Source: Escherichia coli (lineage in GTDB: Bacteria > Pseudomonadota > Gammaproteobacteria > Enterobacterales > Enterobacteriaceae). From it: a stretch of DNA of 64,000 nt. The stretch lies in the NCBI RefSeq assembly GCF_003334405.1, contig NZ_QOWM01000009.1; one strand, given 5' to 3'. Position numbers: made by a program. The stretch's first letter is position 1, and each line of letters starts with the position of its first letter. This document shows, piece by piece, positions 1 through 3,000 of this stretch.

Positions 1-3000
1 GATTCTGGTTTATACCGTCAATAAACCCCAGCGCGCAGCAGAGTTGCTGCGCTGGGGTGTGGATTGCATCTGTACCGATGCGATTGACGTGATTGGTCCG
101 AACTTTACGGCCCAATAGTTTTCAACGGAATGTCAGGCTGCGGCGTGCTGGGCTGATTCAGCATGTCGCCGTTTCTCCTCTCCGGCAGCATATGCTGCTG
201 ATTCAACGAACTATCCGGATTACGGTTGCTGTTTAACATCCCGCCGTTGGTGTTGGGCAGCATTTGCTGCCGGGCGGGATTTCGCTCCCCCGGCTGTGAC
301 TGCAACACCCGCTGAGAATTATTGTTTATCTGGTTTTCTAAATGCTGCTGTTGCAACTGAGTTTGCGTTTTCAGTTGCTGATTCAGCATCCCTTTTTGCT
401 GGATTTGCTGAGTCTGCATCTGGGTTTGCATCCGCTGCTGGCTGGGTATCTGATACCCCGGCTGGTTAGGGTTGTTCAGAGTATTAATGGGCTGTGCAAA
501 GCCGACAAACGGCAGGAGTGCCGTAAGAATCAGAAGTCGTTTCATCGCGTATCCTCCTCTGAAGATATCCTTTAAGTTTACTCGCTTCCCGACAAAACGA
601 TGATTAATTCAGAGTTATATACCAGGCTTAGCTGGGGTTGCCCCTTAATCTCTGGAGAATAACGATGATAAAACCGACGTTTTTACGCCGGGTGGCCATT
701 GCTGCTCTGCTCTCAGGAAGTTGTTTTAGCGCCGCCGCCGCGCCTCCTGCGCCGCCCGTCTCGTATGGTGTGGAGGAAGATGTCTTCCACCCGGTACGCG
801 CGAAACAGGGAATGGTAGCGTCTGTGGACGCCACTGCCACTCAGGTGGGGGTGGATATTCTCAAGGAGGGCGGGAATGCCGTTGATGCCGCCGTGGCGGT
901 GGGCTACGCGCTGGCGGTAACGCATCCGCAGGCAGGGAATCTGGGCGGTGGTGGTTTTATGTTAATCCGCTCGAAAAATGGCAATACCACGGCTATCGAT
1001 TTCCGCGAAATGGCACCCGCCAAAGCGACCCGCGATATGTTCCTCGATGATCAGGGCAACCCGGACAGCAAAAAATCACTCACTTCGCATCTGGCTTCCG
1101 GCACACCGGGTACGGTAGCAGGTTTCTCGCTGGCGCTGGATAAATACGGCACCATGCCGCTGAACAAAGTCGTGCAGCCCGCGTTTAAACTGGCACGCGA
1201 TGGTTTTATCGTTAACGACGCGCTGGCTGACGATCTCAAAACCTACGGTAGCGAAGTGTTGCCGAATCACGAAAACAGTAAAGCTATCTTCTGGAAAGAG
1301 GGCGAGCCGCTGAAAAAGGGCGACACGCTGGTGCAGGCGAACCTGGCAAAGAGCCTGGAGATGATTGCTGAAAACGGCCCGGACGAATTCTATAAAGGCA
1401 CGATTGCGGAACAGATCGCCCAGGAGATGCAGAAAAACGGTGGCTTGATCACTAAAGAAGATTTAGCAGCCTATAAAGCGGTCGAACGCACTCCGATAAG
1501 CGGCGATTATCGCGGGTATCAGGTTTACTCCATGCCACCGCCATCCTCCGGCGGGATCCATATCGTACAAATCCTCAATATTCTGGAAAACTTCGATATG
1601 AAGAAATACGGCTTTGGCAGCGCCGATGCGATGCAAATCATGGCAGAAGCGGAGAAATACGCCTACGCCGACCGCTCGGAATATCTTGGCGACCCGGATT
1701 TTGTCAAAGTACCGTGGCAGGCGCTGACCAATAAAGCCTATGCCAAATCTATTGCCGATCAAATTGATATCAATAAAGCGAAGCCATCCAGCGAAATTCG
1801 CCCCGGCAAGCTTGCGCCTTATGAGAGTAATCAAACTACCCATTACTCAGTGGTGGATAAAGATGGTAACGCGGTGGCGGTGACCTATACGCTGAACACC
1901 ACCTTCGGTACGGGCATTGTCGCGGGCGAGAGCGGTATTCTGCTTAATAACCAGATGGATGATTTCTCCGCCAAACCGGGCGTACCGAACGTTTACGGGC
2001 TGGTGGGCGGTGATGCCAACGCCGTCGGGCCGAACAAACGCCCGCTGTCGTCGATGTCGCCGACCATTGTGGTGAAAGACGGTAAAACCTGGCTGGTTAC
2101 CGGTAGCCCAGGCGGTAGCCGGATCATCACTACAGTGCTGCAAATGGTGGTGAATAGCATCGATTATGGCTTGAACGTCGCCGAAGCGACCAATGCGCCG
2201 CGTTTCCACCATCAGTGGTTGCCGGACGAGCTGCGTGTCGAAAAAGGGTTTAGCCCGGATACGCTCAAGCTGCTGGAAGCAAAAGGTCAGAAAGTGGCGC
2301 TGAAAGAGGCGATGGGCAGTACACAAAGCATTATGGTTGGGCCGGACGGTGAGTTGTACGGCGCATCCGACCCGCGCTCGGTGGATGATTTAACGGCGGG
2401 GTACTAAGGTTAGCGGCCCTCTTCGTGGGAAGAGGGCTATTTTGTCAGGGCAAGCCGAAGGTAGCCTTTTTTATTTCGTAATCCTGTAGATATTCTTCCA
2501 GCGGTTTTGCCGTTCCCAGAGAATGAATTTCACCACTGTCTTTATCAATAATAAAAGGTGCGTTACCAGCTAAGCGCGCAGCCTCATCTCCAGTTTCGAG
2601 AAATTCTCGTGCTTCGAAACAGAAATACCAGCCCTGGCTAAAGCGTCCATGTAGAGTAATGACGACCGGGAGATCTGCATCATCAAGGTAATGGTTCGCT
2701 TTCGCGAATGCGTCGTGATAAGTAATCATAATTATAATAAATATTATTGTTGAGTGTTATATTATTATTCCTGTGTGATACATTGAGCAAAGACGCGTTC
2801 ATCTTCGTCAAAGATATTATTAAATGCTGGTTTTGAAAAAAGTTCATCGGATAAGATATAGTCACGAAATAAGTATCTGCTAATATTTTATGATTTCTTT
2901 TTCAGAACGTCGAACGGGATTTTCTTATTTAAGATATCAGAATCTTATGATTCGGGTAAAATTCTAAATAAATCAACATGTCATTAAAATCATCATAGCC

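Follow-up and report, generated by a model that had tools for sequence, protein, structure and literature searches.

Near one end of the window, the whole 64,000-nt stretch of Escherichia coli DNA analysed here, the gene yhhA lies between ugpQ and ggt. The arrangement of genes, putative control elements and predicted protein segments is as follows.

1..118, plus strand: 3′ end of ugpQ (annotation and sequence), convergent with yhhA, the two genes sharing 14 nt (105-118)
105..545, minus strand: yhhA coding sequence, WP_000825996.1, DUF2756 family (ORF list, K-12 match, PF10956, NF007675)
108..296, minus strand: predicted disordered C-terminal tail, residues 84-146 (pLDDT 44-55; conserved motifs)
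297..446, minus strand: predicted helix and core of the family, residues 34-83, of which 38% are Gln (AF2 and conservation)
447..494, minus strand: mature N-terminal segment, residues 18-33, predicted non-helical (pLDDT 52-59; conserved NNPNxPGY motif)
495..545, minus strand: signal peptide, residues 1-17, with inferred cleavage between A17 and Q18 (sequence reading; family conservation)
552..559, minus strand: Shine-Dalgarno sequence GAGGAGGA, 6 nt before the ATG (sequence reading)
571..581, minus strand: GTAAACTTAAa block, candidate -10 element (TAAACT at 575-580, then TAA) of the yhhA promoter (conservation)
613..630, minus strand: another conserved block of the intergenic spacer, TAAGCCTGGT and bases downstream of it (alignment)
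665..2407, plus strand: ggt, periplasmic gamma-glutamyltransferase (annotation), divergent from yhhA across a 119-nt spacer

The yhhA ORF begins with ATG and runs from position 545 down to 105, comprising 146 codons and a TAA stop at 105-107. Its DNA is 100% identical to the annotated yhhA of K-12 MG1655, and the protein matches both PF10956 (E=1.1e-60 over residues 1-105, Pfam profile search) and NF007675 (265 bits versus a curated cutoff of 136, residues 1-146), in agreement with the gene name assigned by a prior, sequence-only reading of this DNA. YhhA is the E. coli member of DUF2756 (PF10956; NF007675/PRK10350), indistinguishable from and effectively the type sequence of that family. DUF2756 itself has no assigned function, and the description of YhhA as a protein of unknown function also stands.

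The gene is present in 5,425 of 5,426 complete E. coli genomes, including the K-12 and B laboratory strains, and a collinear copy of 441 nt was found in 59 of 60 evenly sampled complete genomes. Values of dN/dS are 0.039 (E. coli), 0.048 (E. albertii) and 0.043-0.076 (Citrobacter), and in close comparisons they resemble those of ggt and ugpQ. Judged by these ratios, yhhA is under purifying selection. Three reports have detected the protein: one places YhhA in its named top 15, by abundance, of STEC surface extracts (PMC9731836), another lists two of its peptides in a Salmonella proteome (PMC4265081), and in the third its level rises under sub-MIC beta-lactam exposure as measured by proteomics (PMC9927464). 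The sequence-only reading had staked its case on the ORF being translated, and this holds because YhhA has been detected by mass spectrometry in both E. coli and Salmonella.

Upstream of the start codon, the purine-rich GGAG core of the Shine-Dalgarno sequence is kept in the Enterobacteriaceae alignment rows, and the GTAAACTTAAa block is near-invariant among 12 Enterobacteriaceae in the intergenic alignment. We infer that TAAACT within this block may be the -10 element of the yhhA promoter. A sigma-70 consensus promoter scan of positions 1-900 returned no site. The block at 613..630 could be a regulator site or a ggt promoter element, each a candidate assignment.

Published data assign yhhA to the RpoS regulon. 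Specifically, a genomic SELEX peak for RpoS holoenzyme falls in the ggt/yhhA spacer (PMC5493296), yhhA is listed among RpoS-regulon genes induced after cold shift, and its expression increases together with that of rpoS at the transition to stationary phase. The conserved -10-like block TAAACTTAA is consistent with this assignment. Similarly, the gene is reported to be up-regulated by acid and by multiple stresses, and to be induced 5.6- and 9.9-fold under a LolCDE inhibitor. The yhhA-ugpQ overlap appears among RNA-seq ‘excludon’ overlaps in a published report (PMC12288877). With regard to identity and expression, it is almost certain that yhhA is a genuine core gene of E. coli, is translated, belongs to the RpoS/stationary-phase program and is induced by envelope stress.

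YhhA contains 29 glutamines among its 146 residues (19.9%) and 18 asparagines, such that the two account for 32% of the protein. The probability of at least 29 glutamines in 146 residues, given a background of 4.4%, is approximately 1e-11, and the extreme glutamine richness noted previously is genuine. The mature protein (Q18-P146, 129 aa) has a composition of 22.5% Q, 14.0% N, 10.9% P, 9.3% L and 6.2% T, with 5.4% each of Met and Gly. Q, N, P, S, T and G together constitute 64%, C, F and W are absent, and only two histidines occur in the entire protein. The mature chain is 14.7 kDa with a pI of 10.4 and a GRAVY of -1.40. Of the four residues said to dominate the protein, Q, N and P do so, but threonine is rarer than leucine. 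The glutamine fraction of YhhA is the highest among the 76 ORFs of at least 100 aa in the window (median 4.6%, runner-up 11.7%), and it is against the ORFs of these 64,000 nt that the suggested rarity of such proteins in E. coli was gauged. The maximum Q/N content in any 80-residue segment is 36 (residues 21-100).

The earlier description of short degenerate repeats, illustrated by a peptide that corresponds to residues 40-72, fares poorly. Tandem Repeats Finder reported 0 arrays at a score of at least 30, and the DNA carries only scattered, imperfect repeats of 13-37 nt. At the protein level, the recurring elements are MQTQ, which occurs twice, and five Met-Leu motifs. A tandem-repeat or low-complexity repeat protein was rejected, as no head-to-tail units were found. 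Rare in-frame deletions and duplications do arise in E. coli, all within residues ~44-116. Regardless, a hypervariable gene length was likewise rejected, because the standard 441-nt gene in 59 of the 60 sampled genomes indicates that length is not polymorphic at appreciable frequency.

The N-terminus of YhhA reads as a basic MKR n-region followed by a hydrophobic h-region and the sequence G-F-A before Q18, with G and A at positions -3 and -1. This is the layout of a Sec-type signal peptide, in agreement with the signal peptide of the earlier reading, and YhhA is probably exported to the periplasm. Residues K2, L10, P12 and A17 are at least 90% conserved in the family, and the predicted cleavage after A17 would leave an N-terminal glutamine. 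In STEC surface/periplasm-type extracts, YhhA is co-extracted with HdeB, Ivy, ZraP and PsiF (PMC9731836).

Beyond the signal peptide, N24, P26, N27, P29 and Y31 are conserved within the short segment of residues 18-33. AlphaFold2 then predicts a single helix (H34-83), for which 10-residue blocks have pLDDT values of 74-93, mostly 84-93. Within this helix M43 is invariant (58 of 58 family sequences), 12 glutamine positions are at least 90% conserved (Q37, Q40, Q46, Q47, Q49, Q50, Q56, Q61, Q65-67 and Q72), and positions 39, 53, 54, 58, 64, 69, 73 and 80 are kept hydrophobic, with this conservation of single Gln, Met and Leu positions extending across genera. Short homologues of 87-110 aa terminate just past SQPG (residues 83-86). 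The model and the alignment together portray the glutamine-rich core as a predicted, conserved helix rather than a random stretch of low complexity. The earlier impression of a disordered protein applies to residues 18-33 and 84-146, but not to the glutamine-rich stretch quoted in its support, which lies inside the predicted helix. Values of pLDDT are low for approximately 60% of the mature protein, and the flanks of the helix are mostly below 60.

The tail carries the motifs QQ[MV]LPN (93-98), GGML (101-104), QQHML (116-120) and NG[SD]ML (125-129), and ends with the conserved sequence PQPxIPLKT[IV]xP, which is IPLKTIGP in E. coli YhhA. In the tails of 91 homologues, 288 of the 319 pairs of adjacent hydrophobic residues are Met-Leu, and the spacers between motifs vary in length. 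Methionine, not leucine, is retained at positions 43 (58/58), 53 (50/58), 103 (49/51), 119 (49/50) and 128 (45/46), and 46 of 51 sequences keep H118, the neighbor of M119. Positions 39 and 95 freely accept L or V in place of methionine. As the alignment reads, constraint on YhhA is position-specific rather than merely compositional. Very probably, the predicted architecture is a signal peptide, a Pro/Asn-rich segment, a helix of ~50 residues and a disordered tail of ~60 residues with four or five Met-Leu motifs.

The helix gives no heptad signal (power 1.4 at period 3.5 versus 19.2 at 3.75), and a canonical coiled coil was rejected on this basis. The best amphipathic periodicity in the 3.3-4.0 range is not significant relative to shuffled sequences (p=0.23). 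AlphaFold2 modeling of a tandem 3x(30-90) construct, which is artificial and was represented by a shallow alignment of 14 sequences, yielded a pLDDT of 36 and a pTM of 0.25. No confident bundle emerged from this construct, whose model is uninformative at such low confidence, and self-association of the helix is thus unsupported. A profile search of all PDB sequences with YhhA found nothing at E≤10.

DUF2756 is a narrow family, with 65 clusters at 50% identity among 1.84 billion representatives, and the species found are Enterobacteriaceae, non-pathogens among them, plus Erwinia endophytica. The order ggt-yhhA-ugpQ is preserved in 25 of 27 genomes, the other two retaining ugpQ without ggt, and the distant members P0140, P0172 and P0179 share the ggt/ugpQ context. 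From these gene orders, the family appears as a single orthologous locus fixed between ggt and ugpQ. Functional coupling to ggt was rejected as a conclusion from this conserved order, because over this evolutionary range the whole ugp-yhhA-ggt block stays together, and two genomes have yhhA but lack ggt; synteny alone is therefore no evidence of shared function. Two homologues bear the names ‘membrane-bound lytic murein transglycosylase’ and ‘exonuclease VII large subunit’, which we take to be automatic mis-annotations because both proteins carry only PF10956. A search for RNA genes on both strands of positions 1-800 produced only a sub-threshold match to isrG (12 bits versus 100).

Thus yhhA was already known though uncharacterised, and the observation that drew attention to it is correct yet ordinary. 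Among the E. coli genes whose function is still to be assigned, it is one that is universal in the species, under purifying selection, RpoS-controlled, induced by envelope stress and abundant in a surface extract. The sharper description given above, of a glutamine-rich core predicted to be helical, a Met-Leu tail with a conserved C-terminus, and a family locked to one locus, makes YhhA testable. Specialists in envelope stress should find the gene modestly interesting; in other respects it is ordinary, because there is no sign of a new kind of system.

What might such a protein do? Overall, we favor, with rather more confidence than doubt, the explanation that yhhA is a real RpoS/stress gene whose product would have a binding or protective role, and not an enzymatic one, in the periplasm of stationary-phase cells. 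YhhA has no catalytic fold, and therefore most likely acts by binding in the periplasm. Our view of the binding or protective mechanism itself is tentative. We hypothesize that the conserved helix would serve as a docking or self-association surface, whereas the spaced Met-Leu motifs could provide multivalent hydrophobic contacts, either with a partner in the envelope or with envelope proteins that are damaged or unfolded. YhhA would then be a protective, chaperone-like accessory of stationary-phase and stressed cells. No Pfam match to known periplasmic chaperone families was found for YhhA at E≤10.

Several known proteins offer parallels to this proposed binding or protective function. Like OsmY, YahO, YqjC, YbgS and the YhcN family, YhhA is small, Sec-exported and inducible both in stationary phase and under a range of stresses, and yhhA shares expression clusters with small envelope proteins of this type. 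However, the Pfam comparison revealed no sequence relationship to them, and none is known to be glutamine-rich or to bear Met-Leu motifs. YhhA may, by analogy, work like the stress chaperones Asr and the Spy/CpxP/ZraP LTXXQ family, which are also small, basic, stress-induced, helical or disordered periplasmic proteins without enzymatic function. It differs from them in having no LTXXQ or chaperone Pfam match (E≤10) and no PDB relative.

An alternative that we consider unlikely is that YhhA is a non-specific hydrophilic protectant, either a hydrophilin or a molecular shield, that as an abundant, strongly hydrated and mostly unstructured polymer buffers the envelope against desiccation, osmotic, cold or acid stress by its bulk composition and not by specific contacts. 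The GRAVY of -1.40, the 64% content of Q, N, P, S, T and G, and the low pLDDT over ~60% of the mature chain all fit such a role. So do RpoS control, induction by cold, acid and multiple stresses, and abundance in extracts. Bulk composition does not, however, account for an invariant methionine, fixed glutamine positions and fixed Met-Leu motifs, nor for dN/dS values as low as those of the neighboring enzymes in close comparisons, nor for a 441-nt length that is fixed in 59 of 60 sampled genomes even though slippage variants arise. Hydrophilins are reportedly defined, following Garay-Arroyo and colleagues in 2000, by more than 6% glycine and a mean hydrophilicity above 1. YhhA is sufficiently hydrophilic by this definition, but its glycine content of 5.4% falls short.

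A second proposal, which we hold to be distinctly unlikely, draws on methionine chemistry. By analogy with SilE and PcoE, the conserved methionines would bind soft metal ions such as Cu(I) or Ag(I), or would soak up periplasmic oxidants through their own sacrificial and repairable oxidation. SilE and PcoE are exported proteins of about 140 aa, disordered with helical propensity, that use conserved methionines and act as periplasmic Met/His-rich metal sponges. The methionine content of YhhA (5.4%), the failure of leucine to replace methionine at positions 43, 53, 103, 119 and 128, the prevalence of ML among hydrophobic pairs in homologue tails (288/319) and the conserved H118 next to M119 (46/51) are in keeping with this idea. 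However, L or V freely takes the place of M39 and M95, and YhhA has just two histidines and no cysteine. Unlike SilE and PcoE, it carries no HxxM/MxxH arrays, has no Pfam match at E≤10 to copper- or silver-binding families, and has no known metal regulation; in the sampled papers that mention yhhA, control specific to copper, silver or oxidants is not reported, and regulation fits RpoS. The residues involved would be M39 and M43, on one face of the helix, together with the ML motifs and H118-M119.

It is very unlikely that YhhA instead self-assembles during stationary phase into a Q/N-rich prion-like, amyloid or gel-forming matrix, whether periplasmic or on the cell surface. Curli are controlled by RpoS, as YhhA is, and YhhA occurs in ‘surface’ extracts. 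A Q/N-rich domain is said to require at least 30 such residues in 80, a threshold attributed to Michelitsch and Weissman in 2000, and by composition alone the 36 of YhhA exceed it, as in Q/N-rich domains of the eukaryotic type. Prion-like domains usually conserve composition, not sequence. YhhA departs from these domains in its position-specific conservation, its periplasmic export signal and the confident prediction of its Q-rich part as an alpha-helix with fixed residue positions. In addition, 11% proline and a net positive charge disfavor amyloid, and the tandem construct did not pack in AF2.

Along the lines of the two preceding ideas, YhhA could be not simply a passive, low-complexity protein but either a Met-dependent redox- or metal-responsive binder or oxidant sink, or a reversible periplasmic gel or condensate driven by its Q/N helix. 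We grant this a small chance. Five methionines, set in the Gln-rich helix and the multivalent ML tail, are near-immutable, M43 being invariant and M53, M103, M119 and M128 being ~86-98% conserved. If true, a methionine-based device or a periplasmic condensate would represent a kind of system not known to be described for E. coli.

In a preprint (bioRxiv 10.1101/364117), YhhA is instead presented as a validated effector of EPEC: pathogenic E. coli would secrete it by the type III route, and its S/T-Q motifs would imitate the substrates of ATM-family kinases in the host. We regard this claim as highly improbable. The many TQ, QT and SQ dipeptides are real, but the TQ/QT frequency is expected trivially from 22% Gln and 6% Thr. 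Furthermore, YhhA has what reads as a classical, cleavable Sec-type signal peptide, and its RpoS-regulated gene belongs to the chromosomal core: 5,425 of 5,426 E. coli genomes carry it, the laboratory strains of K-12 and B among them, and many non-pathogenic Enterobacteriaceae have it at the same ggt-ugpQ locus. Its distribution, universal in E. coli and wide in Enterobacteriaceae, does not follow that of type III secretion systems, and none of the EPEC type III secretion papers sampled is among the literature naming yhhA. The chance that yhhA is a spurious, untranslated ORF arising from CAG/CTG-rich sequence is practically nil: its sequence is low in complexity and long ORFs occupy the opposite strand (342-575 and 296-469), but purifying selection acts in the yhhA frame, the Shine-Dalgarno sequence is strong, curated family models match, and mass-spectrometry detections in three studies already refute the idea.

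Finally, YhhA resembles the Rz-like i-spanins of phages in that a hydrophobic segment at the N-terminus precedes a long, polar helix in the periplasm. It differs from them in giving no spanin match, in having no embedded or adjacent o-spanin and no cysteine, and in residing at the chromosomal ggt-ugpQ locus. Searches by tblastn with YhhA and with the distant member P0168 against 50,697 phage records yielded only mis-filed Salmonella chromosomal contigs, or nothing. A spanin identity was rejected given this chromosomal context, the lack of phage homologues and the nature of the PHROG spanin matches, which are weak (E 3.8e-4 to 0.14) and limited to the distant members P0168 and P0172. One of these two proteins sits in a prophage-like block.

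The glutamine-rich secreted protein that a sequence-only reading had picked out in this window is encoded by yhhA, an annotated, uncharacterised core gene; the observation holds and describes something known before. What is new here is descriptive, namely a conserved Gln-rich helix, a tail of Met-Leu motifs, a fixed locus and a candidate promoter.

105-545, minus strand: yhhA ORF, ATG start, 146 codons, TAA stop at 105-107

Over its first 3 kb the window matches E. coli K-12 MG1655 at 100% identity, and the annotation there names the ORF yhhA, 'DUF2756 family protein' (WP_000825996.1). 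Pfam PF10956 matches residues 1-105 (E=1.1e-60) and NCBIfam NF007675 matches the full length (265 bits, cutoff 136). By both profile and synteny, YhhA is a member of the DUF2756 family. The ggt gene is divergent from yhhA across a 119-nt spacer, and ugpQ is convergent with it. The tails of yhhA and ugpQ overlap by 14 nt (105-118) in Escherichia, whereas an 8-nt gap separates them in Citrobacter, and the pair is listed as a convergent transcriptional overlap (PMC12288877).

Of 5,426 complete E. coli genomes, 5,425 carry this gene, and an even sample of 60 gave a collinear 441-nt match in 59. Across 1.84 billion representatives, an exhaustive HMMER search recovered only 65 clusters, and a scan in which a single genome stood for each species found the gene in Escherichia, Citrobacter, Enterobacter, Pseudocitrobacter, Lelliottia, Kosakonia, Siccibacter, Shimwellia, Klebsiella sp. 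and Erwinia endophytica. Of 27 loci, 25 have the order ggt/yhhA/ugpQ and two retain ugpQ without ggt, and three distant DUF2756 members, checked separately, occupy the same position. yhhA is one vertically inherited locus.

A lack of translation, which the sequence-only reading had named as the result that would overturn it, is not what proteomic studies report. YhhA is among the 15 most abundant named proteins in STEC surface extracts, beside the periplasmic HdeB, Ivy, ZraP and PsiF (PMC9731836), is quantified in a Salmonella proteome (PMC4265081), and increases under sub-MIC beta-lactam (PMC9927464). The Nei-Gojobori dN/dS of yhhA is 0.04-0.08 (in comparisons with a second E. coli lineage, E. 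albertii and Citrobacter), a range equal to that of ggt and ugpQ, and its dN is 2-4 times theirs in the more distant comparisons. A Shine-Dalgarno sequence, GAGGAGGA, lies 6 nt before the ATG. Purifying selection, this ribosome-binding site and proteomic detection together refute a spurious ORF. In published work, yhhA is reported to rise together with rpoS on entry to stationary phase (PMC2241611), among RpoS-regulon genes induced by a cold shift (PMC4057180), by 5.6- and 9.9-fold with a LolCDE inhibitor (PMC5105897), and as a hub gene in multiple stresses (PMC9501238); a response to acid also appears in the literature. YhhA is thus abundant, stress-induced and under purifying selection, and its N-terminus, laid out like a Sec signal peptide, suggests an exported protein, as had been proposed.

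The composition is as extreme as first described. Gln accounts for 29 of 146 residues (19.9%; binomial tail ~1e-11 against a background of 4.4%), the highest fraction among the 76 window ORFs of at least 100 aa. The predicted mature protein (Q18-P146) contains 22.5% Q, 14% N and 10.9% P, lacks C, F and W, and has a pI of 10.4 and a GRAVY of -1.40. The weakest part of the earlier description is its 'short degenerate repeats', exemplified by a peptide that corresponds to residues 40-72: Tandem Repeats Finder returned no tandem repeats in yhhA, and at the DNA level the gene has just short, dispersed repeats. Among E. coli entries in the protein database, rare alleles of 96-165 aa carry in-frame deletions or duplications, all within residues ~44-116, that join short Q/T-codon repeats and leave residues 1-43 and 117-146 invariant. 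Because no length variant occurs among the 59 full-length sampled genomes, these alleles are rare slippage products rather than a maintained polymorphism. Two homologues (P0087 and P0097) bear the names 'membrane-bound lytic murein transglycosylase' and 'exonuclease VII large subunit', which are probably automatic mis-annotations caused by Gln-rich low-complexity similarity.

AlphaFold2, run on a 58-sequence alignment, predicts a single long helix at residues 34-83 (pLDDT of 74, 89, 92, 93 and 84 by 10-residue blocks), whereas pLDDT falls to about 44-59 at residues 18-33 and 84-146. The helix is also the most Gln-rich part of the protein (38%), so that the Gln-richest part is predicted to be structured; the proposed disorder is not predicted there and fits the low-scoring flanks. 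Column statistics support real constraint on the putative helix: M43 never varies among the 58 sequences, Q37, Q40, Q46, Q47, Q49, Q50, Q56, Q61, Q65-67 and Q72 are at least 90% conserved, and positions 39, 53, 54, 58, 64, 69, 73 and 80 are fixed as hydrophobic. Amphipathicity is weak; there is no 3.5-residue periodicity, and the top helical-range signal, at 3.75 residues, is non-significant against shuffles (p=0.23). Distant homologues of 87-110 aa end just past the SQPG that closes the helix, making the helix the family core, and the tail is a lineage-specific extension. The tail conserves QQ[MV]LPN, GGML, QQHML, NG[SD]ML and a C-terminal PQPxIPLKT[IV]xP, with spacers of varying length, and Met-Leu makes up 288 of 319 adjacent hydrophobic pairs in 91 homologue tails. 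In C41(DE3), a strain used for membrane-protein expression, YhhA has the change Pro97Leu (nt 290 C to T), deemed unimportant by the authors who describe it (PMC4632034); codon 97 (window 255-257) lies inside the QQMLPN motif.

By analogy, YhhA may work like the small periplasmic stress proteins Spy/CpxP/ZraP and Asr or the Met-rich sponges SilE/PcoE, but it belongs to none of these families, since Pfam gave no profile match to them. Weak Rz-like spanin PHROG matches are confined to two distant DUF2756 members (P0168, E=3.8e-4, and P0172), and a spanin identity for E. coli YhhA is rejected. The 87-aa P0168 is encoded in a prophage-like block (L030 4001-4264; JGI metagenome 3300012995, contig Ga0157361_1000017), on the opposite strand between large terminase and capsid/protease genes, like a cargo ('moron') gene.

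No related enzyme family (Pfam) or solved structure (PDB profile search) was found for YhhA, which would be non-enzymatic and act by binding. Given the predicted helix-plus-motif-tail architecture, we tentatively hypothesize that the helix could serve as a docking or self-association surface, while the spaced Met-Leu motifs could make multivalent contacts with an envelope partner, or with damaged envelope proteins, in stationary-phase cells. A non-specific hydrophilic protectant is unlikely, as conservation is position-specific and length is fixed. A methionine-dependent or self-assembling periplasmic device seems improbable. Methionine chemistry, as soft-metal binding or an oxidant sink, could explain why Met is kept over Leu almost absolutely at five positions, yet it is quite improbable for a protein with two His only, in which M39 and M95 are substituted freely and for which the available portions of the yhhA literature mention no metal-linked regulation. 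Self-assembly through Q/N-rich sequence is remote: the protein reaches the compositional threshold (36 Q/N per 80 residues), but the helix is confidently predicted and an artificial tandem-helix construct gave no confident packing in AlphaFold2. The type III effector mimicking ATM substrates asserted in a preprint is barely credible beside a Sec signal, universal distribution and RpoS control.

The ggt/yhhA spacer offers a candidate promoter for yhhA. Alignment of this spacer from 13 genomes reveals a near-invariant GTAAACTTAA block ~30 nt 5' of the yhhA ATG, a putative -10 element with a TAA tail. Such tails are common after the -10 of RpoS promoters. An RpoS holoenzyme genomic SELEX peak also falls inside the spacer (PMC5493296). 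A second block at 613-630 (minus strand), comprising TAAGCCTGGT and downstream bases, is conserved throughout the Enterobacteriaceae, with a downstream half that is -10-like (TATATAAC) in Escherichia only, and may be a regulator site shared by the divergent ggt and yhhA. The ggt 5' leader contains a GC-rich hairpin, GGGGcaaCCCC (634-644), ~20 nt before the ggt start (665), that intergenic alignment shows to be kept across genera with compensatory changes and that could be a structured element of this leader. Expression of ggt in E. coli is temperature-dependent. On the 3' side of ggt, K-12 annotation of window ~2445-7450 lists yrhB, yrhD, IS1A, yrhA and a 'tssD / Hcp1 family type VI secretion system effector', which looks like a decayed island adjoining the conserved ugp-yhhA-ggt block. 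Finally, a terminator-like hairpin at 140-169 (plus strand), 22 nt past the ugpQ stop and within the yhhA coding sequence but on the other strand, is a candidate terminator of the ugp operon.
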